Source: Minisyncoccota bacterium
GTDB lineage: Bacteria; Patescibacteriota; Microgenomatia; UBA1400; PJMF01
NCBI GenBank assembly: GCA_003173865.1
Contig: PJMF01000010.1
Location: 19,088 to 83,087, forward strand
Direction of reading: 5' to 3'
Length of the DNA: 64,000 bases
The notes beneath the pieces were generated by a model. The model searched no databases. It saw only the letters and a list, made by a program, of their open reading frames with translations, and was not told the origin of the DNA. Shown piece after piece: positions 3,752 to 45,301 of the stretch (its first letter is position 1; each line of letters starts with the position of its first letter). The position numbers were made by a program, and so were the translations under genes.

Positions 3752-3855
3752 TTTTTTTCGCTATTTTACCAGGCCATTCGGGAACTCAACCTGATCTTCA
3801 TACACTGACATCCATTTGTTTTGATATTTTGCAGTGTGTGATAATTGTTTGATGC

Positions 3856-4386
3856 TCATTGCTTTATCCAGTATCGATTTTTAAGCGCGCCATTTGGAAT
3901 TTGATATGTATCCTCTAACACCCCGCCATTTTTTTGAATAACTTTACTTGAACTAACATTGTCAACATCACATGTAACTAAAACATCTTTAATCCCTAGT
4001 TCGTGCGCCTTTTGAATTCCAAGCCGAAGTGCAAGTGTCCCGTATCCCTTATTCCGCTGCGTCGGCCGAATGTAGTAACCAATGTGGCCACCTTCATTTT
4101 TTAGCGACTCATTTAATTGATGACGAATATCCACTTGACCCAAAAACATATCACCATCAACGAGCCAGTACACTGTATGGGCAACATAGCCTACCGGTAA
4201 GTCAATCCCAAACGATTCATTACGAATACGAGTAATATAACTCTCAAAATCCTTATTTACATCTTCAGCTTTGAACCGAGAGTCAGGCTGATATTCCTCT
4301 AAAGCCTCAAGATAACTTTTTTTGTATTTCGTATCTGGAAGAACAAGTTCTGGCATAGATTTCGCTACGGTTTCACAATATGCCAC
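3856..4386 (-). CDS. GNAT N-acetyltransferase
   Basis: Acetyl-CoA binding region RNKGYGTLALRLGIQKAHELGI. Confidence 0.7.
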   Translation of the reverse strand: MAYCETVAKSMPELVLPDTKYKKSYLEALEEYQPDSRFKAEDVNKDFESYITRIRNESFGIDLPVGYVAHTVYWLVDGDMFLGQVDIRHQLNESLKNEGGHIGYYIRPTQRNKGYGTLALRLGIQKAHELGIKDVLVTCDVDNVSSSKVIQKNGGVLEDTYQIPNGALKNRYWIKQ

Positions 4387-5505: not shown

Positions 5506-6447
5506 TTATTTAAAAATTTTTACTAAGTCAATTACCCAATCCTCATCCCCATCATATACCCCATCTAGGTATGATTCTCTTCCAACGTCTTTGTAGCCAA
5601 GTTTTTCGTATAAAGACTTTGCGCGAGGGTTTAGAGTTGGGTTAACTGCAACACTAATTTTTTCATATCCTTTTTCTTTAGCAATTTGTTCACACTTTTG
5701 AATAAGTTGTTTACCTAAACCTTGGCTTCTTTTATTCTCTACAATATAAAGATCTTGCATGTTAGGATAACCGGGTTCTGTTTCATTTCCTTTAAGTCGA
5801 AGAAGAACTTGACCTACAATCTCATTTTTGTTTTCAATCACTAAGAAAATAGCATCTTCTGTTTTCACCTTTTCAAGAGCTGTTTGAGCAGCAACTTGAT
5901 AATTTCTTCTGTGCTCTTCATCTTTAGGACGCTTCAATCTTGAAAGCTGAGGAGTATCTTCAGATCTTGCTGAACGAATGATTATTTCTAACTTCATCTT
6001 AAAAATTAAATAATTATCTTTATCTCTTCCATCTTCAATAAAACCTACCGAAGATAAAGCCTTTTGACTAATGAGGTTAGATTCTTCCACTCCAGCAAAT
6101 AACTCCACTACACCCAGTTCATATGCTTTATCAATTAAGGTTCGAAGTAGTTCTTTACTTAAACCCTTTCCTCTGTGCACGGGATCAATGTAAAATGAGA
6201 ATGAAGCAGTTTCATTTTTATATGTTTCTAAATCTACAAATCCAATCGGTTTTGCGTCTTTATAGACAATCCATTTAAACCGCGGAGTAGTATTCGGTCG
6301 ATTAAACCAACTATCGAAATCCATGTAAAAACCAAGTTCTTTCTGGCCTGCACTATCGCCAGTAAACCACTGTGTGATAAGTGATTGATCGGTAGAAGAG
6401 ATTGGTTTAAAAGTCATTTTTTTAATTAAGTTGATTTCATTAACCAA
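5506..6447 (-). CDS. Tandem-GNAT acetyltransferase
   Basis: Two GNAT cores: HRGKGLSKELLRTLIDKAYELG and RSQGLGKQLIQKCEQIAKEKG. Confidence 0.7.
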   Translation of the reverse strand: MVNEINLIKKMTFKPISSTDQSLITQWFTGDSAGQKELGFYMDFDSWFNRPNTTPRFKWIVYKDAKPIGFVDLETYKNETASFSFYIDPVHRGKGLSKELLRTLIDKAYELGVVELFAGVEESNLISQKALSSVGFIEDGRDKDNYLIFKMKLEIIIRSARSEDTPQLSRLKRPKDEEHRRNYQVAAQTALEKVKTEDAIFLVIENKNEIVGQVLLRLKGNETEPGYPNMQDLYIVENKRSQGLGKQLIQKCEQIAKEKGYEKISVAVNPTLNPRAKSLYEKLGYKDVGRESYLDGVYDGDEDWVIDLVKIFK

Positions 6448-7864: not shown

Positions 7865-8494
7865 CTACGATTTTTCTTCTACTAACTTCTTTACTTCCTC
7901 AGTGAGGATATTTTTGATTTCATCTTCCGTCATCTCTCCGTTTACCCATTCAATAGGAACCATTTCAATATCTTGAAAATAGACTAAAGGTTCAAGAATC
8001 CACTTTTGTGTTACTTTGTATCTTTGTATCGCCTCATCCATACCTTGTTTGAGCGTAACCGACTTATTTTTAAGACAGCACGCAATATCTACATAATCTC
8101 GCCACACATTTCTTTTACCCAGAACGAAAAGCTTGGTAGAAAAAATATCAGCAACGGAAGCAAGTCTCGCACCATCTAATACCACTGTCTCATGAAGCAG
8201 CGGTGCTTTATCTTGAAAAACGGTTACTTTGATTCCATCCATAAATGCAGTGTATTGAGTATCTGACTGCAATCTTTGTTGTAATTCTTTTGGTTCGAGT
8301 GCAGATAAAAACTTATCAATAAAAGGAGATGTCACATTCTTCGTTATAACCCAATCAAGATCATATGATTTACGGCCACCAATTTGTAACGCCAAAGCTG
8401 TTCCACCAACCAGTGTTAGGTCAGAAAATTGAGCTGCCTTTTTGAGAATTTGCAAATGGCTCTGCGTAATCGTTTCAAGATGCCATTGAGACAT
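7865..8494 (-). CDS. AbiEii/AbiGii-family nucleotidyltransferase (type IV TA toxin-like)
   Basis: N-terminal LVGGTALALQIGGRKSYDLDWV matches the AbiEii GGTAL...R.S.DLD signature. Confidence 0.6.
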   Translation of the reverse strand: MSQWHLETITQSHLQILKKAAQFSDLTLVGGTALALQIGGRKSYDLDWVITKNVTSPFIDKFLSALEPKELQQRLQSDTQYTAFMDGIKVTVFQDKAPLLHETVVLDGARLASVADIFSTKLFVLGKRNVWRDYVDIACCLKNKSVTLKQGMDEAIQRYKVTQKWILEPLVYFQDIEMVPIEWVNGEMTEDEIKNILTEEVKKLVEEKS

Positions 8495-12062: not shown

Positions 12063-12087
12063 ATATTTTGATTTGGTCGCTGTATAA

Positions 12088-12105
12088 GACTTTATCCGAA
12101 CGATA
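12088..12105 (+). repeat. Dispersed repeat copy A (partial)
   Basis: GACTTTATCCGAACGATA matches the 3' half of the roughly 30-bp repeat family. Confidence 0.5.
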
Positions 12106-14226: not shown

Positions 14227-14254
14227 ACTCCCCGTGTGGGATTTTATCCAAACG
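14227..14254 (+). repeat. Dispersed repeat copy B
   Basis: CTCCCCGTGTGGGATTTTATCCAAACGG. Confidence 0.55.
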
Positions 14255-14266
14255 GTTGTTTAATCC

Positions 14267-15547
14267 TTAGTTTTCTAGCAACCACTCATACAGAGGAATC
14301 ACTTGTAAAGTTAATCCATCTTGTTGATGGATCATTTTTTCACTTTCGGTTACTATTACCAGTTTGGCTTTTTTCTGCTCTACAGCTGCTTCGACAAGAG
14401 CTCTCACTTCTCTTTCTTTAGTATTTTCATCACCAAGATGCTGGACAACTTGCAGTAAAACAGTATCTTTCGGCAGGAAAAAATCAACTTCATGGTCTTT
14501 ATTTGTCTTATAATAGTAAATATCCTTTGTTTTTCGTCTTAATTGCAAATAGACAGCATTCTCAATGAGCTTCCCTTTATTCTTTGAAAAAGAAAAACCA
14601 ACCGATTGCGTCAAACCGGTGTCAATGCAGTACAACTTTTTAGCAGCAATTTGTTGCTCTTTCACTGAGTAGGCATATTTGTTTACAACAAAAAAAAGCC
14701 AACTATTTTCTAAATACTCGATATAGCTAGAGACTGTATTCACACTTCCTAATTTAAGTAACTCTTTGAGTTTGTTAAACGAAAGAGCAGAAGATATATT
14801 ACTTATCAGATAGAAACTCAGTTCTTTCAAGCTTTTAACATTATCGAGCTTGTAACGCGTCGCAATATCTCTATAGAGAACATCGTCATACAAAGTTTTG
14901 TGAATCTCCAATTCAGGATATTTCAGTGCATCAGGAATTCCCCCTAAAACAATATATTCGTTGACATGCCGCAGAAGTTGTCCTCTTTGTTTTGTTGTTA
15001 ATACCTTTAAACTTGGAATCTCTACTTCACGAAAGCGTAAAAATTCTCGAAACGAAAATGGGAACAACTCAACCCGAATCGACCGACCAGTAAGCCGTGT
15101 CCCTAGCTCTTGACTAAGCAAAGAAGCATTCGAACCAGTTACGATAAACTTATATCCTTGGTCATGGAGTCTTCGTACAAACCGCTCCCACTCAGGTATA
15201 TTCTGTATTTCATCAAACAGGAATGTCTTTTTTTCTCCAAACAAGCTCATGAGTATCTCGTGCAGCTTATCGAAATCCTGAACTTGGAAGTTCAATAATC
15301 GTTCATCTTCAAAGTTGACGAAGTAAAAATCATCTTTCAGGTACCTTTTGGCTACTTGAGCTAAAAGTGTGGACTTTCCCACCCTCCGGAGACCTGTGAC
15401 AACCATGATTTGGGGAGTTTTTACAATATCACCCAAACTGCTTAAAAGCTCCCGTTCTACCCCAATGTCCTTCGCTAGAAATGCCTCATGCTGCTCTTTA
15501 AGAACAGAGGAAAGAACTTCTTTTGTTAATTGTTGATTTGATGTCAT
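14267..15547 (-). CDS. AAA+ ATPase (COG1373/DUF4143 family)
   Basis: Walker A GLRRVGKST; Walker B FLFDEIQ. Confidence 0.8.
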   Translation of the reverse strand: MTSNQQLTKEVLSSVLKEQHEAFLAKDIGVERELLSSLGDIVKTPQIMVVTGLRRVGKSTLLAQVAKRYLKDDFYFVNFEDERLLNFQVQDFDKLHEILMSLFGEKKTFLFDEIQNIPEWERFVRRLHDQGYKFIVTGSNASLLSQELGTRLTGRSIRVELFPFSFREFLRFREVEIPSLKVLTTKQRGQLLRHVNEYIVLGGIPDALKYPELEIHKTLYDDVLYRDIATRYKLDNVKSLKELSFYLISNISSALSFNKLKELLKLGSVNTVSSYIEYLENSWLFFVVNKYAYSVKEQQIAAKKLYCIDTGLTQSVGFSFSKNKGKLIENAVYLQLRRKTKDIYYYKTNKDHEVDFFLPKDTVLLQVVQHLGDENTKEREVRALVEAAVEQKKAKLVIVTESEKMIHQQDGLTLQVIPLYEWLLEN

Positions 15548-15674: not shown

Positions 15675-16277
15675 TTATTCGGACTCATTCTTTTTTAGCT
15701 TTCTTGTCTTTCTCTTCATGAGATACCATACTCCACCTCCGCCCACAAGCAACCCAAAAAGAAAGGATCCTCCACTGCCACTATTTGATTGACTCTCTGC
15801 CATTGATTGAGGTGTAGTAGATGGCTGAATGATTGGAGCAGGAGTTGGTAAAGACAAAGCTTCAGGAGGGGGAGTCGGAACCGGTAATATTGAAGGAGAT
15901 GGCGTAACAACTGTTTGCGCTTTAAAAACTGGAGAAGGTATAGGAGAAGGATTTGCAGGAACTACAGCTTGTATTGTTGAAGTTCCGCCGCACTCAACCA
16001 TACTACTATAACTGCAAGAAGAGCCAGTCCATCCATCTTTGCAAATAACCGCACCATCTGTTTGAGGGCCCGCACCACAATCAGCTCCACCATGTCCTGA
16101 GCAACAACCACTTCGTGCAAACACAACAGACGCTGAAATGAAAAAAAGAGAGAAAAATAAAAATGAAGTGAAGAGAGACCTACTCACATATTTAGAGTAT
16201 AGAAACCTTACAGAGTTGTTAAGTAGTAACTTCAATAAAGAATTGCTGTTATCTTTTAAACCATTCCTGAACAGCAT
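15675..16277 (-). CDS. Secreted or anchored Cys-rich/Pro-Thr-rich protein with C-terminal TM and basic tail
   Basis: N-terminal TM or signal, Cys-rich domain, PSP/PTP-rich linker, C-terminal GGGGVWYLMKRKTRK sorting-signal-like tail. Confidence 0.45.
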   Translation of the reverse strand: MLFRNGLKDNSNSLLKLLLNNSVRFLYSKYVSRSLFTSFLFFSLFFISASVVFARSGCCSGHGGADCGAGPQTDGAVICKDGWTGSSCSYSSMVECGGTSTIQAVVPANPSPIPSPVFKAQTVVTPSPSILPVPTPPPEALSLPTPAPIIQPSTTPQSMAESQSNSGSGGSFLFGLLVGGGGVWYLMKRKTRKLKKNESE

Positions 16278-16432
16278 AAGCTATTGTTGGAAGTCTTCCG
16301 TTTATTCCTATCCAACCAGCGACTAGAAGTATTAAATCTGACCATTCAAATTTTACTTGAGAGAAAAATGTATATACCTTTCGACTACCCATGCTGCAGG
16401 TGCGTCCTTTTTAATTTTATCCGTATCCTGAG

Positions 16433-16458
16433 TTTTATTTTACGAATGCAAAAGCGTT
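16433..16458 (+). repeat. Direct repeat DR-1 flanking the SLOG-like gene
   Basis: TTTTATTTTACGAATGCAAAAGCGTT, identical at 25 of 26 positions to 17817-17842. Confidence 0.6.
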
Positions 16459-16484
16459 ACTTCAATTCCCAAACTCATTTACCT

Positions 16485-17699
16485 TTATACACCACTTCCC
16501 ATCATATTTTGACCTATAGACTGGATGAGCGCACTTGAATTTTCACTCTCAACATATTCCAACCACGCCTCTGAGTTATTGAAGAGAGACTTGTACTGTG
16601 GATCTCTCTGAAAAGGAACTAGGGCTTTCTCAAATGTTTCTTTTTCTGAGAAACCACCAACTCCACCTACAACTACAATACGATATCTTTTTCCTTGTCG
16701 AATAGCCGTCAATGCATTATCGAGATAAATTTGGAGTTGAGCTGTCGTCTTCTCTCCACCTCCAATAAGAAAAACTGTTTCTACATTAAATTTTCGTGAA
16801 GCAATCCCATATTCACCTACGAGTTCATCCCCCCATTTACTCTCACTATCTGATGGGGGTTGAGCTATCAAAATTAAACTATTACTATCCACAACATACT
16901 TTTCAGGGTTTTTTGCTAATGGGAGAGACATCAAACTTTCAATTCCTTGTTCTTCTAACGGAGCTAAAATTTGCTTTTGAATTCCTGCACTATTACCAGC
17001 AGCTACTATGAGTGGTCTTTTCCCACCTACTTTTGAAGACTTGTACTCCAAAATTTCACTTACAATGAGCTGGCACACAGATTTTGCTCTTTGTGCCTGT
17101 TCAACAGTGAGACCTTCTTGCGTTTCACCGCTTTGGAGAACTGCATCCATTGTTTTTGCCCATCCATCAATAAGTACTTTGCGTGCGTAAAAAAATTCTG
17201 GATAGTGATCTCTTAATTTTTCTGCCTCAATTATACGATATTTATTTTCACCATTTCCACCGGCCATTTCATAACGCAGTTGTGAAACAATATTTTTAGC
17301 TTCTCGTAGTAACTCTTGTTGATCGACTATGTAAGAAAAAGGATCGTCAAGTTCGCGTTGCAGTACAGTATTCGTTGACTTGTACTCAGCAATTGTCACA
17401 CGGCGATCGATTGTTAAATCAGGAGAACTAAATCGCAAATATACTCTAAATCTTCCCCTATATACAATTTCCTCTCCAAAACTCCCATGTGTTTCCTCTT
17501 CTTCTGATTCAGATAATTCAAGTGTCCACCCTTTATGCATAAGGGGTGCAATCGTATCAAAAAGATGCTGGACTGACTTCATCCGCCGACCTCCCGGTCG
17601 CGGTTCTAAGTACGGAACTAGAGAAGACAATTTATTTCTGAGATCGTATCCACCAATTTTTTGTTCTTGGGAGTGATTGTCACCTTCTTTCCGCATCAT
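16485..17699 (-). CDS. SLOG/LOG-like Rossmann nucleotide-binding protein with N-terminal extension
   Basis: C-terminal half has PLIVAAGNSAGIQ and VVVGGVGGFSEKETFE, resembling LOG/DprA GGxGxM and PGGxGTxEE motifs. N-terminal roughly 200 aa unassigned. Confidence 0.4.
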   Translation of the reverse strand: MMRKEGDNHSQEQKIGGYDLRNKLSSLVPYLEPRPGGRRMKSVQHLFDTIAPLMHKGWTLELSESEEEETHGSFGEEIVYRGRFRVYLRFSSPDLTIDRRVTIAEYKSTNTVLQRELDDPFSYIVDQQELLREAKNIVSQLRYEMAGGNGENKYRIIEAEKLRDHYPEFFYARKVLIDGWAKTMDAVLQSGETQEGLTVEQAQRAKSVCQLIVSEILEYKSSKVGGKRPLIVAAGNSAGIQKQILAPLEEQGIESLMSLPLAKNPEKYVVDSNSLILIAQPPSDSESKWGDELVGEYGIASRKFNVETVFLIGGGEKTTAQLQIYLDNALTAIRQGKRYRIVVVGGVGGFSEKETFEKALVPFQRDPQYKSLFNNSEAWLEYVESENSSALIQSIGQNMMGSGV

Positions 17700-17816
17700 A
17701 GTATTGTGGATTATATCAAAAGTGGTTCTGAAATCGTCCTATAAAGTATCGTTTTGCTCGCTCGGTGGGACAATTTCAGAGTAACAAACTGGGCAGAAGT
17801 CACTCCATATCTTGAT

Positions 17817-17842
17817 TTTTATTTTACAAATGCAAAAGCGTT
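17817..17842 (+). repeat. Direct repeat DR-2 flanking the SLOG-like gene
   Basis: TTTTATTTTACAAATGCAAAAGCGTT. Confidence 0.6.
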
Positions 17843-17882: not shown

Positions 17883-18170
17883 CTATTTATTTTTGGAAAA
17901 TTTTCTTTTTTCGAGCTCAACTAGGATATCATCTAAAGTGATTCCTCGCTCAACCAGTAAGACAAGTGTGTGAAATGTGAGATCCGCTATTTCAGAAATC
18001 AGACGCCCTTTGCTCTCATTCTTTGCGGCAATCACAACTTCAACGACTTCTTCACCAACTTTTTGAATAATTCGATCATCTCCATCGCGAAAAAGCGACG
18101 CAACATATGAGCCCTCGGGCATTGCTTTCTTTCGAGCCAAGATCGTATTGTAAAGTTCCTCAAGTGTCAT
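17883..18170 (-). CDS. hisE: Phosphoribosyl-ATP pyrophosphatase
   Basis: MazG-like LEELYNTILARK...EEVVEVVIAAKNE. Confidence 0.85.
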   Translation of the reverse strand: MTLEELYNTILARKKAMPEGSYVASLFRDGDDRIIQKVGEEVVEVVIAAKNESKGRLISEIADLTFHTLVLLVERGITLDDILVELEKRKFSKNK

Positions 18171-18508: not shown

Positions 18509-19260
18509 CTTCTCACAATAATGTTTTTTGATCGCAAAAAATCTTTTACTTCTTTAATTCTCAATTCGCCGAAGTGAAACAGGGAAGCAGCTAAAGCTGC
18601 ATCAGCTGATCCTTTTTGAAAAACATCCAAGAAGTCACTTTTCTCTCCAGCTCCCCCCGAGGCAATGACTGGCACTGTGACCACCTTAGAAATAGCTTTG
18701 GTCAGCACAAGATCATATCCTTGTTTGGTTCCATCTCTATCCATACTGGTTAAAAGAATTTCACCCGCACCTCTCCGAACTCCTTCCTTTGCCCACTCTA
18801 AAGCATTTAAACCAGTTTCAAGTTTGCCACCATTTATCAGTACTTCCCACCCAGAATCTTTTTTCTTGGCATCGATGGCTAAAACAATACATTGACTACC
18901 AAACAGTTTTGCAGCCTCTGTAATCAGATTAGGATTCTTTACAGCCGCTGTATTCAAAGAAACTTTATCTGCTCCTGCTAGTAAAACACTACGAATGTCC
19001 TGAATAGAATTAATGCCACCGCCCACGGTAAAAGGAATAAAAATTTCTTTTGCGACCTTTTTCACTACCTCTACCATTGTTTTTCGCTTTTCATTTGAGG
19101 CTGTTATATCAAGAAAAACTAATTCGTCAGCTCCTTCATCATTGTAGAATTTAGCCAACTCAACTGGATCACCAGCATCTTTTAAATCAACGAAGTTGAC
19201 ACCTTTAACTACACGACCGTTGTTTACATCGAGGCAAGGAATAATGCGTTTAGCTAACAT
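18505..19260 (-). CDS. hisF: Imidazole glycerol phosphate synthase cyclase subunit
   Basis: [12 protein letters not shown]... Start trimmed to M23 of the track ORF so that it abuts hisA. Confidence 0.9.
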
Positions 19261-25519: not shown

Positions 25520-26392
25520 TTACAAAATCATTTTTTCAATTGGTAAAACGATAATTCCTGATGCACCAACACTCTTGAGTTTTTCAATAGTTTCCCAAAA
25601 CGTGTCTTCTTTAATGACTGTTTGCACTGATAACCACCCTTCTTTTGCTAAAGGGGAAATCGTTGGTGCTTTTAATCCAGGTGTAATCTTCTTTAATTTC
25701 GGCAGAATTTCTGCTGGAGCATTCATCATCACGTATTTGTAATTCTGGGCTGACAAAACCCCTTTGAAACGGATCATGAGTTTTTCTAGCAATACTCGTT
25801 TACTCTCTACGGATGAAGTTTTATCGTTTGCAATAAGAACCGCTTCTGAATCATAAATTTTCGTGAGCGGGCGCAAATCATTTAATGTCAGGGTACTCCC
25901 CGTTGATGTGAGATCGGCAATGGCTTGTGCTACACCCAACGTTGGCGCAATTTCCACGGAGCCATTAATTTTGATTGTTTCAACGGAAATTCCATTTTTC
26001 TTAAAGAAGTTTTTGGTTGAGTTGGGATAGGTGGTGGCGATAGTTTTTCCGCTCAAATCGGCTATTGCTTGTACTCCTGATTCCTTTGGTACAGCTAAGG
26101 TTAAGGCACAGAATCCATATCTCAAATTCAAAAGTTTCTTCACATTTGCCGGTCTTTCTTCATACAGCAAATTTTGACCAAGAATCCCAATATCCACGCT
26201 TCCTGAAGCCACATAATCTGGAATGTCATCATCACGAACATACACAATTTCGAGTGGAAAGTTTCGACAACTTGCAAAGAGCTTCTGCGTGTAACTTTCA
26301 AACTCCAAACCTGATTTCCGCAAAAAATCGAGCGTGTCATCAGTCAGACGACCACCCTTTTGAATTGCGAGTTTTAAACTTTTGTTGTTCAT
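25520..26392 (-). CDS. hisG: ATP phosphoribosyltransferase, long form
   Basis: MNNKSLKLAIQKGGRL. 290 aa implies the long regulatory form. The track ORF 25520..26602 is an artefactual extension through tRNA-His. Confidence 0.85.
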   Translation of the reverse strand: MNNKSLKLAIQKGGRLTDDTLDFLRKSGLEFESYTQKLFASCRNFPLEIVYVRDDDIPDYVASGSVDIGILGQNLLYEERPANVKKLLNLRYGFCALTLAVPKESGVQAIADLSGKTIATTYPNSTKNFFKKNGISVETIKINGSVEIAPTLGVAQAIADLTSTGSTLTLNDLRPLTKIYDSEAVLIANDKTSSVESKRVLLEKLMIRFKGVLSAQNYKYVMMNAPAEILPKLKKITPGLKAPTISPLAKEGWLSVQTVIKEDTFWETIEKLKSVGASGIIVLPIEKMIL

Positions 26393-26422
26393 ATTTGCTA
26401 TATATTCCTTTTTCAAATCTCT

Positions 26423-26497
26423 TGGACGGCTGAGGGGAGTTGAACCCCCGACTCTCTTCTCCACAGGAAGATGCTCTACCGCTGAGCTACAGCCGTC
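26423..26497 (-). tRNA. tRNA-His (GUG) with encoded G-1
   Basis: Minus strand reads GACGGCUG-UAGCUCAGCGGUAGAGC-A-UCUUC-CUGUGGA-GAAGA-...TTCAACT...CAGCCGUC. Anticodon GUG. 8-bp acceptor stem GACGGCUG/CAGCCGUC (G-1:C73). Full CCA not encoded. Confidence 0.85.
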
Positions 26498-26511
26498 ATA
26501 TTTTTTACAAC

Positions 26512-26757
26512 AAAAAACCTCCCGTTCATTACTCGCCACGTCAAAAACAACATGACAAATAAGGAACGAGAGGCAATAAAAAAGGACCTCCCGCGGTCCC
26601 ATCCTTAGTTCCTAAAAGTATTTCTCTTCTAGGCTCTTAGGCCGGCTCCGCTAATGCGACATCGGCTGTTGGATTTAACGGTTCAACTTCCGTAAGGCAT
26701 TTTGGCCTTCAGCTCGTGGATCGTGACTCCACTCAAACGCTTTTGTATTAACTTGTA
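26512..26757 (-). promoter_or_regulatory. His-specific T-box riboswitch leader with short Stem I
   Basis: Hairpin GUGGA-GUCACGA-UCCAC with CAC in the loop (26725-26723). F-box CCGUUA (26681-26676). T-box motif GGAUGGGACCGCGG (26610-26591) where UGGG's G matches the His C73 discriminator. Antiterminator element GGGAGG versus terminator CCUCUCGUUCC...GAACGGGAGG plus U6 (26573-26512). Confidence 0.6.
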
Positions 26758-27117: not shown

Positions 27118-27272
27118 GTTAATATTTTAACATTGAGAATCTTGCAGACCAACATCAGCTTGCCAATTATTCAGGATTAATCACATAGAAGAGAATGACC
27201 CTAAATCTTAATTCAAATAAACTCAAATCTGAAGCTATGTTGATTTAGTGCTACTTGATTCAGCGATGCTGC

Positions 27273-27295
27273 ACGTGTGGGAGTTTATCCGAACA
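27273..27295 (+). repeat. Dispersed repeat copy C
   Basis: CACGTGTGGGAGTTTATCCGAAC. Confidence 0.55.
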
Positions 27296-27467: not shown

Positions 27468-27573
27468 CGGAGGAAGCGGGATTCGAACCCGCGAAAAACA
27501 TTCCTGTATACCCTACAAATATGTCTTTTCCAGATTGTCACTCTAGTGCATTCGGCCGCTCTGCCACCCCTCC
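27468..27573 (-). tRNA. Atypical 106-nt tRNA-like gene (Tyr-like type II architecture, anticodon loop GUGACAA)
   Basis: GGAGGGG-UG-GCAGAGCGGCCGAAUGC-A-CUAGA-GUGACAA-UCUGG, then a 37-nt variable hairpin, then GCGGG-UUCGAAU-CCCGC-UUCCUCC-G. Acceptor 5 WC plus 2 G.U pairs. Too long for a standard tRNA. Confidence 0.4.
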
Positions 27574-28464
27574 CTTTTCATTCATACTTTTAAGTTGATT
27601 TTTCAAGTAATCTATTCCCTTTTGTAAAATGGAATAGCCATTCCCTTTTTGCTTCACATAAGTGCTCTTTATATTAGAGATATTTCCACTAGTAAAGTTA
27701 GATGTAGATATAGAGTCTTTTAGCTTATCAGATAGATATTCAATATCAGTTGCTGTTAATGATTTGATATTTCCCTTGGCTTCTGCATATATTAAGAGCC
27801 ACAAAATCTTATCGGATCTTTTCGCGAGATGATGAAATCGTGGGAATCCTTCTAATTCTGACATTACTTCTAGAGATTCCAGTCCTGCAGTTAAGATTTG
27901 TTTTTTCTTTTTGGTTTTATTGGTTCCTACTGAGAAGCCACCTTTTGGACGATTTGCGAAGTTTGAACTAAGTACTGAAAGCCCCGTTCTTGTGACGTAG
28001 TATTTGTTAGAATTTCCCAATTGAGAAATATATCCTAACTTAACTGTGTGTTTAAAATCACGAGCTAAATTTTTTGTTGGGTCTTTTTCTCCTGCTTTTA
28101 TGAAAAGATCTTTAATGTCACTTGGAGAAAAGTTATCCTGAGAATTAACTTTTTGAAAATAATTCCCCAAAATTAATACTTTATCTGGATTAAACTTAGC
28201 TTCTGGGTAAGATAAAAGCTCTTCTTGAGGAGAAAGACTTGGCGAAGTGTATTGGGAAAAACCCATTTCAGGATTTTGAGGAATTTGAGTCAAGCTAGAA
28301 TTTGAAACACCCTCTTCTTTTTCATCCTCATTACCGACTTTAATAGCAGCTATAATTTTTAAAGCAAGTTCAAAAGAAATTTCATTTTCAAATGATAGAG
28401 ATTCATCTGTTATTAAAATTTTTGGCATGTTTTGAACAGTATGCCTTCCAGTCCGTGATGTCAA
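27538..28464 (-). CDS. Hypothetical 308-aa protein whose stop lies inside the tRNA-like gene
   Basis: ORF with no recognisable domain. The last 12 codons overlap the 5' half of the tRNA-like sequence. Confidence 0.35.
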   Translation of the reverse strand: MTSRTGRHTVQNMPKILITDESLSFENEISFELALKIIAAIKVGNEDEKEEGVSNSSLTQIPQNPEMGFSQYTSPSLSPQEELLSYPEAKFNPDKVLILGNYFQKVNSQDNFSPSDIKDLFIKAGEKDPTKNLARDFKHTVKLGYISQLGNSNKYYVTRTGLSVLSSNFANRPKGGFSVGTNKTKKKKQILTAGLESLEVMSELEGFPRFHHLAKRSDKILWLLIYAEAKGNIKSLTATDIEYLSDKLKDSISTSNFTSGNISNIKSTYVKQKGNGYSILQKGIDYLKNQLKSMNEKGGVAERPNALE

Positions 28465-28836: not shown

Positions 28837-28910
28837 AGAGCGAGGGTTTGAAGTCTTTGAGAAAAAGCCGACAACTGAGGTTGAGAAAGTGATCTTATTA
28901 TATTTTTCAT

Positions 28911-28943
28911 TAGCTCCCCGTGTGGGACTTTATCCGAACGATA
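28911..28943 (+). repeat. Dispersed repeat copy D (full length)
   Basis: TAGCTCCCCGTGTGGGACTTTATCCGAACGATA. Confidence 0.6.
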
Positions 28944-33124: not shown

Positions 33125-33664
33125 CTATTTTAAAAGTCCCTCAATCTTCAATAGAGCATATGCACTAATACTCGGGGCATCCTTAATTTCTCCTTGTACA
33201 ATCATTTTTTCCAGATCTTCAACTGTAAATTTAGACATAGTCATTCCCATCTCACTTATTTCTAAATTCTGTGAACCTTTTTCAAAATCAGTTGCAAGAA
33301 AAATATGGAAACCTTGGTTACAGTACCCATACGCTTCATAGAAAAAACCAATCTCCTGCCAACTCTTAGCTCTTAGACCTGCTTCTTCTAATAATTCTTT
33401 TTGAGCAACTTCTTTTGCACTCGTCTCTGGCTTTTCTTCATAAGAACCCTGAGGAAATTCCCAAAATGATTTGCCAACTGGGTAACGGAACTGTCGTACT
33501 AAGTAAAAATGAGTTCCATCGAATGGAATAATTAGTGCAAAGTCGGGTTTTTCAACAATCCCGTAAATACCTTTCTTCCCGTTTGCAAACTCCACCTCGT
33601 CTTCGTAAACAGACATCCATTTATTCTTATACTTTGGAATTCGCGATAATTGCTTGATGCTCAT
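33125..33664 (-). CDS. NUDIX hydrolase
   Basis: Nudix box GSYEEKPETSAKEVAQKELLEEAGL. Confidence 0.75.
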   Translation of the reverse strand: MSIKQLSRIPKYKNKWMSVYEDEVEFANGKKGIYGIVEKPDFALIIPFDGTHFYLVRQFRYPVGKSFWEFPQGSYEEKPETSAKEVAQKELLEEAGLRAKSWQEIGFFYEAYGYCNQGFHIFLATDFEKGSQNLEISEMGMTMSKFTVEDLEKMIVQGEIKDAPSISAYALLKIEGLLK

Positions 33665-42976: not shown

Positions 42977-44527
42977 GTGGCAAAGATGTATCAGCAACTG
43001 AATGGCTCTGACGACTACGCTAGTGTCAAAAACTGCCTACTCTATGCCCGTGTGAGCACGGATCGCCAAGTACGTGAGGGTCATTCTTTTGAAGACCAAA
43101 TCGAGCGATTAAGTAAGTTCGCCCGAGATCGAAACTGGCATATTATCGATGTGTATAAAGATGGGGGTAAAAGTGGTGGCTCAACTACTGGCAGACCAGA
43201 GTTTAACCGCATGCTTGAACGATGTGCCAGTGATCCAGAAGTTCATGCCGTTTTGCTCGAAGAAACTGACCGCTTCGCCCGCAATGCTCAGGATCATTTA
43301 GCCGTCAAATCATTTCTCAAAAAACATAACGTACTCTTGATAGCAACCGAGCAACCCAACTTCGGTGATGACCCAGTCGGAAAGTTTGTCGACTTAATCA
43401 TGGCTGGAGCCAACCAACTACAACGCGAAATAACTGGTCAAAAAACCAAACGCACAATGGTCTCACTTGCTGAGAAAGGTATCCAACCTGGCCCTGCCAT
43501 TATTGGGTATCGTAACTCTTATAAAAAGGGTGAGCCTTGGTCGATTGATCAAGAACGTGAGTACTTTGTCAAAGAAGTTTTTCGCCGTTACCACACTGCG
43601 ATGTACTCCATTTATCGATTAGAAGATGAATTGTTCAATGAAGGGTTTCGCACTCCAAAAAGCTGCCGTGTTCGAGCTAACGCCATTGCGCGAATGTTGG
43701 TCGATGTCCGTTATGCTGGGAAAGTGCTGTACGACGGAAAGACCTATGATGGTCTTCACCCTTGCATCGTCACCATGGAAGATATACAAAAATCAAAGGA
43801 CATTATGCAAAAACACAATAAAGGTGCAGACCGCACTCGCAAACACAACTGGTTTTTGGCTGGCCTGGCATATTGCAAAACATGCGGCACATTGATGTCT
43901 GGCGAGCAACATATCAAAGAGACTGGTCAAATCAATTTGTATTACCGGTGTCTTGGTCAAAAGAGCTATGGCAAAAGCTGCACAGAACCATATGCCATCA
44001 TGGATGACATTCACGATCAACTGGAAACGTGGATTAAAGGTTTGAAATTTGAAGAAGGTTTCTACGATGGACTGCGCCAAGAGCTATATGGCTTAATGCA
44101 AAGCCAAGGCTCAGATGTCCCGAGCCAAATACGTACACTCAAAAAACGGAAAATGGTAATTGAGAAAAAGATGGATGCGCTCGAAGATCAATTATTTGGC
44201 GAGATTGTTTCTAAAGAGCGCATTGAAAAGAAATATGCGCCACTTCGTAAAGAGTTAGAAAAGGTCGAGTCACAGATTGCAGCACTGAGTAAACCATCAG
44301 CGAACTTAGATGAAAAGAAAATTGAAAAGATCATCGACTTTTTGAAACGTTTACCCGAGCTCTATAAAGCTTTCACCAAACCAGAACGAAAACTGTTCTT
44401 ACACTGGCTCGTCAAAAATATCTGGATACAAGGCAAAAAAATCGTCGATGTGAGTTACACCGAAGGCTTCCAAGCCTTAATCGACCGTGATTTGGTTCGG
44501 ATAAGCAACACGTGGCTCCTCGGCTAG
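42977..44527 (+). CDS. Large serine recombinase/integrase
   Basis: Resolvase N-terminus LLYARVSTDRQ with catalytic Ser. Recombinase domain and Cys cluster CKTCG...C. The stop lies within the tRNA-Asn 3' end. Confidence 0.8.
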   Translation: MAKMYQQLNGSDDYASVKNCLLYARVSTDRQVREGHSFEDQIERLSKFARDRNWHIIDVYKDGGKSGGSTTGRPEFNRMLERCASDPEVHAVLLEETDRFARNAQDHLAVKSFLKKHNVLLIATEQPNFGDDPVGKFVDLIMAGANQLQREITGQKTKRTMVSLAEKGIQPGPAIIGYRNSYKKGEPWSIDQEREYFVKEVFRRYHTAMYSIYRLEDELFNEGFRTPKSCRVRANAIARMLVDVRYAGKVLYDGKTYDGLHPCIVTMEDIQKSKDIMQKHNKGADRTRKHNWFLAGLAYCKTCGTLMSGEQHIKETGQINLYYRCLGQKSYGKSCTEPYAIMDDIHDQLETWIKGLKFEEGFYDGLRQELYGLMQSQGSDVPSQIRTLKKRKMVIEKKMDALEDQLFGEIVSKERIEKKYAPLRKELEKVESQIAALSKPSANLDEKKIEKIIDFLKRLPELYKAFTKPERKLFLHWLVKNIWIQGKKIVDVSYTEGFQALIDRDLVRISNTWLLG

Positions 44528-44776
44528 GATTCGAACCTAGAACCATCTCCTTACAAAGGTCCCTTAGTTACCTAAAGGTTTGGACTATCTTATCCGCCAA
44601 ACTGTGTTTGGTGGCTGGGTATATAGTCTCTACACATTTACCCCGCCGCGGCGGGGATTTAGCTCGGGATTTTCCTCTGAAGAGGAGTTCCCCGAATTAG
44701 CCCAGTTTTCCACTATCTATTACTAGACAGCGCTGCCATGTAACAGGGAGCCGCGCTACCATTGCGCCACCGAGGA
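44513..44776 (-). tRNA. tRNA-Asn (GUU) interrupted in the anticodon loop by a group I intron
   Basis: 5' exon UCCUCGG-UG-GCGC-AAUGGUA-GCGC-G-GCUCC-CUGU. 3' exon UAAGGAGA-UGGUU-CUAGG-UUCGAAU-CCUAG-CCGAGGA-G-CCA. Spliced anticodon loop is CUGUUAA. Confidence 0.7.
44554..44742 (-). ncRNA. Group I intron (about 189 nt, no ORF)
   Basis: P-like AAUUCGGGGAA, Q-like AAUCCCCGCC, R-like GUAGAGACUAUA, S-like AAGAUAGUCC. 5' exon ends in U. omega-G precedes the 3' exon. IGS GCAG pairs with exon CUGU. Confidence 0.65.
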
Positions 44777-44839
44777 ATGTTAAGCTACGTCCGCTATTTT
44801 ATCAGCAAAAATCAGAGAAATCTATGCTATTCTGGAAGC

Positions 44840-45301
44840 ATGTTGAAACCTCCTTCCAAAGCTCCCACATTTGCACTTCCAGATCAAGACGGAGCTACTC
44901 ATACGCTTGAGCAATACAAAGGCAAGTGGTTGGTGGTGTATTTCTATCCCAAAGACGACACACCTGGCTGCACAAAGGAAGCGTGCTCGTTTCGCGATAG
45001 CTTCAACGAACTTCAAAAACGTAACGTGGCAGTATTCGGCATTTCCAAAGATTCTGTGAAATCACATAAAAAATTTCAAGAAAAATTTCACTTAAACTTT
45101 CCGTTATTAAGCGATATATCCACGGAAATTATTCAGAAATTCGGCGTTTGGGTACCAAAAAAATTCATGGGCCGCGAGTATACAGGCATCGCGCGCACAA
45201 CATTTTTAATTGATCCTGAGGGAAAAATTGCGAAAGTATTTGAAAATGTCAATCCAGTTGATCATGCGGCAGAGATCCTTAGTGCGCTGCCATCTGCTTA
45301 A
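44840..45301 (+). CDS. bcp: Thiol peroxidase / peroxiredoxin Bcp
   Basis: PKDDTPGCTKEAC peroxidatic Cys motif. Start trimmed to MLKPP, because the track ORF start overlaps the tRNA. Confidence 0.8.
   Translation: MLKPPSKAPTFALPDQDGATHTLEQYKGKWLVVYFYPKDDTPGCTKEACSFRDSFNELQKRNVAVFGISKDSVKSHKKFQEKFHLNFPLLSDISTEIIQKFGVWVPKKFMGREYTGIARTTFLIDPEGKIAKVFENVNPVDHAAEILSALPSA

Follow-up and report, generated by a model that had tools for sequence, protein, structure and literature searches.

Downstream of the histidine biosynthesis operon of a bacterium of the candidate phyla radiation (CPR; Patescibacteria) stands a single open reading frame (ORF) of 404 codons that is enclosed by two copies of a direct repeat, and the locus raises the questions of whether this gene was inserted there and what kind of protein it encodes. 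The window analyzed is a stretch of 64,000 nt (contig PJMF01000010.1 of a Minisyncoccota bacterium, positions 19,088 to 83,087; 40% GC). The original prediction, made from the window's sequence alone, described the ORF as a SLOG/LOG-like gene and proposed either a cassette-type insertion or a duplicated terminator or promoter module; the ORF was found with both motifs quoted there (AAGNSAGIQ and VGGVGGFSEKETFE), and its placement right after hisE, the last gene of a complete his operon, was borne out (Table 1). The probable answer to both questions is that the ORF represents a new SLOG-fold family with a new N-terminal domain, carried on a mini-island of CPR bacteria that is the relic of an integrase-less insertion. 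The more specific reading of the 1,384-nt repeat-bounded unit, as an old, non-autonomous insertion downstream of hisE in this Microgenomates-like genome, is held tentatively, with a rough probability of 45%.

The 26-nt direct repeat noticed first (16433–16458 and 17817–17842, identical at 25 of 26 positions) is present as described and forms the core of a longer repeat of 39 nt, in which 35 positions agree. The four differences between its two copies, A and B, amount to a divergence of about 10%, and the first 14 nt are identical. The core 26-mer is matched twice in the window, where none is expected from 100 shuffles; when the two intergenic regions were aligned locally, only the 39-nt block emerged; its edges are sharp, and it scores 58, where shuffled sequences reach 27 at most. 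Read along the gene strand, the layout is hisE stop codon, 40 nt, copy A, 104 nt, ATG, ORF, stop codon, 26 nt and copy B, with a start-to-start period of 1,384 nt, so that the earlier placement of the repeats "just outside" the gene does not suit copy A. No further copy was detected in the window at up to 6 mismatches in 26 or 10 in 39, and neither 1.33 Mb of fetched loci nor JGI metagenomes yielded one; the 39-mer was rejected as a dispersed element on this basis. The 39-mer with its flanks folds no better than shuffled sequences and the 39-mer has no Rfam match, which led to rejection of an RNA element, a hairpin terminator and an attC site. A second intergenic repeat family was observed in the window (CTCCCCGTGTGGGAyTTTATCCGAACG; four copies, 70–93% identical, at 12066–12105, 14228–14254, 27269–27295 and 28904–28943), each copy lying shortly past the 3′ end of a minus-strand gene or tRNA-like match and 80–150 nt ahead of the next gene; it has the string TTTATCCG in common with the end of copy B.

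The gene between the repeats belongs to a previously undescribed and very rare family. The 404-aa protein has no match in Pfam (even at E ≤ 10), NCBIfam (E ≤ 0.01, including TIGR00730), PADLOC or the sequences of the PDB, and the profile searches suggested originally therefore gave nothing. A word-indexed search of 5.8e9 clusters recovered three relatives besides the protein itself, whereas an exhaustive profile search of 1.84e9 representatives recovered six proteins in total, four of them spanning only the C-terminal 220–300 residues. A second profile iteration added two proteins, both close relatives of one of these (P0007), and so failed as a bridge to annotated SLOG families. None of the relatives carries a Pfam domain (precomputed annotation "-"), and the four proteins P0005–P0008 yielded only one spurious match (E 0.21). 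The family is apparently restricted to CPR/Patescibacteria; one relative is recorded under Candidatus Peregrinibacteria as a hypothetical protein. Another, P0008 (locus L093, 1007–1669; contig GC 18.6%), had been called with UGA as Trp, but all 12 of its TGA codons stand at Gly positions of the relatives and its true Trp codons are TGG; because these TGA codons occupy invariant-Gly positions, P0008 is assigned to a lineage that uses genetic code 25 (UGA as Gly; Gracilibacteria/Absconditabacteria-type), under which its frame is open for about 44 codons further upstream. A phage origin was rejected, since the family is absent from IMG/VR and a fold search against viral proteins gave no match at E ≤ 0.001 (best 2.3e-3).

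The contexts of these relatives and the repeats found at some of them appear to favor insertion. The homologs stand alone as single genes, their surroundings differ from lineage to lineage without synteny, and no neighbor is conserved across them: the homolog follows an ABC transporter gene (locus L003), follows a KAP NTPase gene about 8 kb from a serine recombinase gene that abuts tRNA-Trp (L001), follows rpsI, a GIY-YIG gene, tRNA-Leu and tRNA-Pro (L004), lies beside a MazE-Fic pair (L008), or lies beside a GIY-YIG gene and tRNA-Ala (L009). In the Peregrinibacteria lineage (L009, L010, and L011), the homolog and an 85-aa GIY-YIG gene are alone in a 1.64-kb segment that holds no integrase and is bounded by an exact 18-nt direct repeat of the tRNA-Ala(GGC) 3′ end, one copy being supplied by the tRNA itself; 300 shuffles produced no repeat longer than 14 nt. 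Such a duplication of a tRNA 3′ end is what integration into a tRNA gene usually leaves behind. Between L001 and L003, DNA homology extends only from the gene to the exact end of the 32–39-nt repeat that follows it, and this repeat follows three consecutive genes in L001 and five in L003, producing gene-plus-repeat arrays. In the element (TAGGTTCTGAnGTCCTCCACnAAGCCCTGCA), which looks like a tRNA 3′ end, each of the three frames contains stop codons; several copies are units of 70–85 nt with terminal inverted repeats (TAGGTTC...GAACCTA), and the genes that follow the elements, those of L003 included, each have TGnTATAAT close to the ATG. With no viral match and one JGI match, it was rejected as a widespread element. 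In L008 (contig GC 36%), a 30–45-nt direct repeat (269–298 and 1056–1085; 93% identical over 30 nt) brackets the MazE-Fic pair, one gene away from the SLOG homolog, so that here too an accessory module is enclosed by direct repeats.

On the reading of the unit as an old insertion, the 39-nt repeats would be diverged attL/attR-type junctions left by site-specific integration catalyzed in trans, and the unit would comprise one repeat copy, the 104-nt promoter region, the 404-aa gene and 26 nt. Direct repeats do stand at both ends of the unit, as attL and attR would. The cargo would be a gene that stands alone and is driven from an extended −10 promoter of its own: the element TGATATAAT ends 10 nt before the ATG and there is no Shine-Dalgarno sequence, an arrangement that suggests an own promoter and a nearly leaderless mRNA. 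A transposon or insertion sequence (IS) with target-site duplication was rejected, the unit having no terminal inverted repeats at its ends and no transposase, and its repeat being 39 nt long and 10% diverged in place of the short (2–15 bp), identical duplication expected.

Several observations weigh against insertion. No empty site or excision junction was found: exact-protein look-ups for the 404-aa protein and for the 200-aa neighbor on the far side of the unit returned nothing, the look-up for identical HisE returned only a locus (L092) that is 100% identical over 2.5 kb and hence the same genome, and among 80 his-operon loci (species representatives, HisE at most 73% identical) none has any common gene downstream of hisE. 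The composition of the gene is host-like in GC, GC3, codon usage (z 0.16) and tetranucleotide signature (fifth closest of 24 genes), by which a foreign composition was rejected, and the divergence of the copies at 4 of 39 positions was counted against a recent foreign origin. A scan of 38 window ORFs, which span 1.2–30.8 kb, turned up no recombinase. The relatives never carry the 39-mer; several have an analogous bracket of their own, and there is none in L004 and none around the homolog itself in L008. L004 does have a 47-nt repeat (3870–3916 and 6088–6134; 89% identical) with a hairpin of about 10 bp (CCGGTAAAGGC...GCCTTATCCGG), but it follows adk and rpsK and brackets the core genes map, infA, rpsM, and rpsK, so it must be a regulatory, REP- or terminator-like module and not an insertion scar. 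The 39-nt repeat itself is real and non-random, yet repeat pairs of its kind are not rare: the fetched loci contain about 0.5 comparable pairs (at least 30 nt, at least 88% identical, 0.3–5 kb apart) per 64 kb. Finally, a σ70-like promoter site overlaps copy B, with the −10 hexamer inside the repeat and the −35 hexamer just outside it. The cassette-type insertion of the original prediction is therefore left plausible: homologs that are non-syntenic and repeat-bounded islands, including one with a duplicated tRNA-Ala 3′ end, speak for it, and the missing empty site and host-like composition speak against it. As to what had been expected to refute it, the repeat is not a common intergenic element, but relatives do lack this particular repeat, some having other brackets and some none.

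The σ70-like site is the starting point of the main rival, ranked next after insertion and judged somewhat unlikely, in which the two copies of the 39-mer stem from duplication of a regulatory module (a promoter core with an operator or the start of a 5′ untranslated region, UTR) and stand ahead of two neighboring transcription units; the gene would be long-resident and the repeats would be silent on insertion. Each copy does lie upstream of a gene start on the same strand, the host-like composition of the gene is as this account would have it, and both the other intergenic repeat families of the window and the 47-nt repeat around core genes in L004 offer parallels. The promoter is less convincing at copy A, where the equivalent −35 position is poorly matched (by eye) and the SLOG gene has the much better extended −10 element 85 nt further downstream. 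The distance from repeat to start codon is also unequal (104 nt against 27 or 142 nt), 17 conserved bases downstream of the putative −10 are unexplained by promoter function alone, and an unstructured 39-mer with no Rfam match and only two copies in 64 kb is not what a regulatory module would lead one to expect.

The second question concerns the protein. An AlphaFold2 model of the full length (pLDDT 71.7, pTM 0.66) was compared with the PDB by Foldseek, and SLOG-superfamily structures were the sole coherent group among the matches: the TRPM2 chanzyme (E 2e-4), ShosA (8zva; E 3e-3) and TRPM4 (E 6e-3), with the N-terminal regions of TRPM2 and TRPM4 at E 2e-4 to 1e-2 and probabilities of 0.99–1.0, followed by DprA (probability 0.80) and YgdH of the LOG family (probability 0.77). 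All five belong to the SLOG superfamily by established classification (PMC6459960). The match is assigned to residues ~229–404 because the N-terminal domain modeled alone yields no SLOG matches; a SLOG fold in the C-terminal half is thus supported at the fold level only. Counting against this assignment, it stems from one medium-confidence model built on a four-sequence alignment, without sequence-profile support. The claim of a SLOG/LOG-like C-terminal half accordingly stands for the fold and does not extend to membership of the LOG, DprA or YpsA families, for which there was no HMM match; nor did any curated SLOG family model of Pfam or NCBIfam match.

The predicted model has the three-layer α/β architecture of a Rossmannoid fold, and in eight family members glycine-rich loops stand behind its core strands. 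Nineteen columns are invariant in these eight (A234, G235, G239, L259, P260, W289, G290, E292, S301, V309, G314, G315, Q321, Y325, N328, A332, Y339, V347, and G349); A234-G235 and G239 follow the strand at 230–234, G314-G315 the strand at 308–312, and V347 and G349 the strand at 340–345. The family signature is AGNSAGIQ, SKWGDE, GIAS, GGGxxxxxQ, and GVGG, and the glycine loops are kept even in the code-25 relative, where TGA encodes them. Residues 151–228 are common to the shorter relatives P0005, P0006, and P0007, whereas the N-terminal domain is present only in the four full-length members and absent from P0005–P0008. The original description of the N-terminal part as unassigned held: modeled alone, it has no significant fold match (best LptE-like, E 0.02, TM 0.2–0.3). 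A CYTH-like N-terminus was rejected, the PDB profile match (E 0.24) being not significant and the acidic ExExK strand unmatched.

SLOG domains bind or process nucleotides and nucleotide-derived ligands or signals (PMC6459960), and on this ground a small-ligand pocket is inferred in the 404-aa protein. The conserved core (residues ~155–404), with its three glycine-rich loops (AGNSAGIQ, GGGxxxxxQ, and GVGG) and the invariant W289, E292, Q321, Y325, N328, and Y339, would bind, and possibly process, a small nucleotide-derived ligand and would not bind single-stranded DNA (ssDNA); the subfamily-specific N-terminal α+β domain may provide an output or oligomerization function, as in conflict proteins that join an effector to a SLOG domain. 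A distinctly unlikely alternative is that the domain acts as a LOG-type nucleotide N-glycosidase (phosphoribohydrolase) and not as a ligand sensor. The weak YgdH match, the short SLOG-only relatives without an effector domain and the possibility that invariant E292 and the polar Q321, Y325, and N328 form an active site would all suit an enzyme; set against them, neither TIGR00730 nor the Pfam LOG model matches, and the best structural matches are to non-catalytic SLOG domains (TRPM, ShosA). Furthermore, the loop at the position of the LOG PGGxGTxxE motif reads GGGEKTTAQ (GGGxxxxxQ in the family) with invariant Gln321, as aligned by eye and not by superposition; a Gln in place of the Glu, together with the lack of a TIGR00730 match, makes a canonical LOG hydrolase unlikely.

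Two other explanations fare worse, one for the repeat and one for the protein. The 39-nt repeat might be a neutral relic of local duplication, gene conversion or a recombination that joined segments sharing sequence, a very doubtful account for which the 10% divergence of the copies, their lack of structure or Rfam match and the background of such pairs would fit well enough; it leaves aside that the copies precisely bracket a single orphan gene, that they have sharp edges and an identical first 14 nt, and that homologs in other lineages have analogous brackets. A DprA/ShosA-like ssDNA-binding recombination mediator, in an earlier form with a Rad52/ERF-like annealing domain at the N-terminus, is highly improbable despite the Foldseek matches to ShosA and DprA, since the family is acidic (SLOG domain pI 4.7–6.1) with a single conserved basic column (K242) where ssDNA binding by DprA and ShosA needs a conserved Arg patch or triad (PMC12961424), no DprA HMM matched, and the weak RAD52 and ERF matches of the full-length model vanish when the N-terminal domain is modeled alone, on which the annealing domain was rejected.

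The reading of the unit as an old insertion could be part of something wider, an idea held with little conviction: accessory genes would pass one at a time between CPR/Patescibacteria genomes, each as a mini-cassette with a promoter of its own; integration would take place at att-like repeats that differ from lineage to lineage and in some cases stem from tRNA 3′ ends, would depend on a recombinase or a GIY-YIG nuclease supplied in trans, and would give rise to gene-plus-repeat arrays; the SLOG-fold family would be one cargo and the 39-nt bracket one junction pair. If the favored reading is true, the SLOG superfamily, whose domains detect or process signals derived from nucleotides both in immunity (Thoeris ThsA, Shosta) and in TRPM channels, gains an undescribed, CPR-restricted branch that has conserved pocket residues of its own and a new N-terminal domain. 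The unit would then also be a small, concrete example of how ultra-small CPR genomes, with few recognizable mobile elements, may gain accessory genes on integrase-less direct-repeat islands beside core operons and tRNA genes. Neither the new branch nor the example of gene acquisition alters current understanding.

The surroundings of the unit are summarized in Table 1. The his operon, on the same strand as the 404-aa ORF, runs tRNA-His(GTG), hisG, hisS, hisC, hisD, hisB, a HAD phosphatase gene, hisH, hisA, hisF, hisI, and hisE; because it is complete, HAD phosphatase included, the 404-aa gene fills no gap in the histidine pathway, and a role as a missing step was ruled out. The tRNA-His(GTG) gene (26424–26496) is directly 5′ of hisG, and hisS (histidyl-tRNA ligase) is embedded between hisG and hisC, so that the segment from 26424–26496 to 17883 makes up, in this CPR genome, a histidine "supra-operon"; since the mechanical ORF 25520–26602 overlaps the tRNA, hisG must in fact begin further downstream. 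The nearest HisE sequences (at most 73% identical) are mainly from Patescibacteria metagenome-assembled genomes, including Daviesbacteria, Levybacteria, Gottesmanbacteria, and Roizmanbacteria, which places the window in a CPR genome. Beyond copy B, the 47-aa ORF, with an AAGGA motif upstream, may encode a small membrane protein; it overlaps the annotated start of the 200-aa ORF by 29 nt, and for this reason one of the two starts is probably wrong. The 200-aa product, without a family match, looks like a secreted or anchored low-complexity protein. Further downstream of the his operon lies a mix of GNATs, hydrolases, nucleotidyltransferases, and an AbiEii toxin, and judging by its gene content the region looks like an accessory or defense patch, a setting that speaks for insertion. 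The anti-phage context suggested originally is circumstantial, consisting of the PDC-S01 ATPase near the gene in the window and the KAP NTPase beside the L001 homolog.

Elsewhere in the window, an Rfam match to a group I catalytic intron (44561–44754, minus strand; 56.5 bits, above the gathering score) sits in the gap between the plus-strand ORFs 42977–44527 and 44762–45301. At 27468–27573 (minus strand) there is a 106-nt Rfam tRNA match (45 bits) where ARAGORN made no call; the match, which could be an intron-containing or otherwise unusual tRNA, overlaps the mechanical ORF 27538–28464 at its 3′ end. An 86-nt direct repeat (3774–3859 and 33579–33664; 77% identical) covers the 5′ ends of the minus-strand ORFs 3856–4386 (GNAT) and 33125–33664, about 30 kb apart, and probably represents the paralogous N-termini of the two ORFs.

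Table 1. Features of the bracketed unit, its surroundings and the repeats at related loci. Positions are those of the window unless a locus is named.
Feature	Position	Strand	Remarks
Repeat copy A	17804..17842	minus	gene-strand sequence AACGCTTTTGCATTTGTAAAATAAAAATCAAGATATGGA
Repeat copy B	16420..16458	minus	gene-strand sequence AACGCTTTTGCATTCGTAAAATAAAACTCAGGATACGGA
404-aa ORF	16485..17699	minus	orphan, CPR-restricted protein family; ~10 known sequences
Residues 1–150	17250..17699	minus	N-terminal α+β domain: helix, three long antiparallel strands and a short one, long helix
Residues 151–228	17016..17249	minus	helical linker or N-terminal extension of the conserved core; LIDGWAKTMD motif
Residues 229–404	16488..17015	minus	predicted SLOG-fold (Rossmannoid) domain; AlphaFold2 model and Foldseek
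Extended −10 element TGATATAAT	17710..17718	minus	read directly from sequence
σ70-like promoter site	16437..16465	minus	TTGAAG-17 nt-TAAAAT, 9 of 12 matches
hisE	17883..18170	minus	phosphoribosyl-ATP diphosphatase; PRA-PH match E 3e-24
47-aa ORF	16249..16392	minus	hydrophobic, MGSRKVYTFFSQVKFEWSDLILLVAGWIGINGRLPTIAYAVQEWFKR; starts 27 nt past copy B; no family match
200-aa ORF	15675..16277	minus	signal-peptide-like N-terminus, Cys-rich and Pro-rich regions, C-terminal hydrophobic anchor
AAA_14/DUF4143 ATPase	14267–15547	minus	matches PADLOC candidate defense system PDC-S01, E 5e-109; two to three genes from the SLOG gene
AbiEii-family nucleotidyltransferase toxin	7865–8494	minus	beyond the PDC-S01 ATPase
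18-nt tRNA-Ala repeat	L009 571–588 and 2210–2227; L010 459–476 and 2098–2115; L011 354–371 (one copy)
Element TAGGTTCTGAnGTCCTCCACnAAGCCCTGCA, 32–39 nt	L003 3505–6253; L001 11203–13104; L094 666–693		begins at the stop codon, or close to it, in successive genes

Among known systems, the N-terminal SLOG domain of TRPM channels (MHR1/2) and its prokaryotic relatives, which gave the best Foldseek matches, resemble the 404-aa family in predicted Rossmannoid fold and in glycine-rich loops after core strands; the family differs in having no profile match to the SLOG families of Pfam or NCBIfam, a signature of its own, no channel or membrane partner, and occurrence in CPR bacteria only. ThsA of Thoeris and other effector-plus-SLOG sensors share with it the layout of an N-terminal non-SLOG part and a C-terminal SLOG domain, and the 404-aa gene is patchy and found in accessory regions. 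Unlike ThsA, however, the protein has no SIR2, Macro or transmembrane effector (its N-terminal domain matches neither SIR2 nor Macro), no PADLOC match, and neighbors (hisE and the secreted-protein gene) that include neither a TIR protein (ThsB) nor another signal-generating partner; ThsA structures were not in the top 50 fold matches, and the short relatives have no N-terminal domain at all. ShosA, which came second among the distinct structural matches, also has two domains, of which the C-terminal one is SLOG-type, but the 404-aa protein has no SAM domain, is acidic, and lacks the conserved Arg triad, and no ShosT phosphoribosyltransferase is encoded beside it in the window or at any homolog locus. 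DprA/Smf is set apart in the same way (no DNA_processg_A HMM match, K242 as the only conserved basic column), as is the LOG/TIGR00730 family (no HMM match and, by eye, Gln321 in the GGGEKTTAQ loop).

For the unit as a whole, integron gene cassettes offer a likeness in the single gene followed by a recombination-site-like repeat and in the gene-plus-repeat arrays of L001 and L003, but the 39-mer has no attC-like imperfect palindrome (folding no better than shuffles), no IntI or other integrase was found among the 38 scanned ORFs, and the gene appears to have its own promoter at TGATATAAT. Another comparison is with small integrase-less islands flanked by att-type direct repeats, relics of integrative elements that resemble cis-mobilizable elements. 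The repeat in the window differs from theirs in being intergenic, not tRNA-derived, and 10% diverged between copies; the resemblance lies in the single-gene unit between direct repeats of a few tens of bases and, in the Peregrinibacteria homolog, in a unit that carries a duplicated tRNA-Ala 3′ end.

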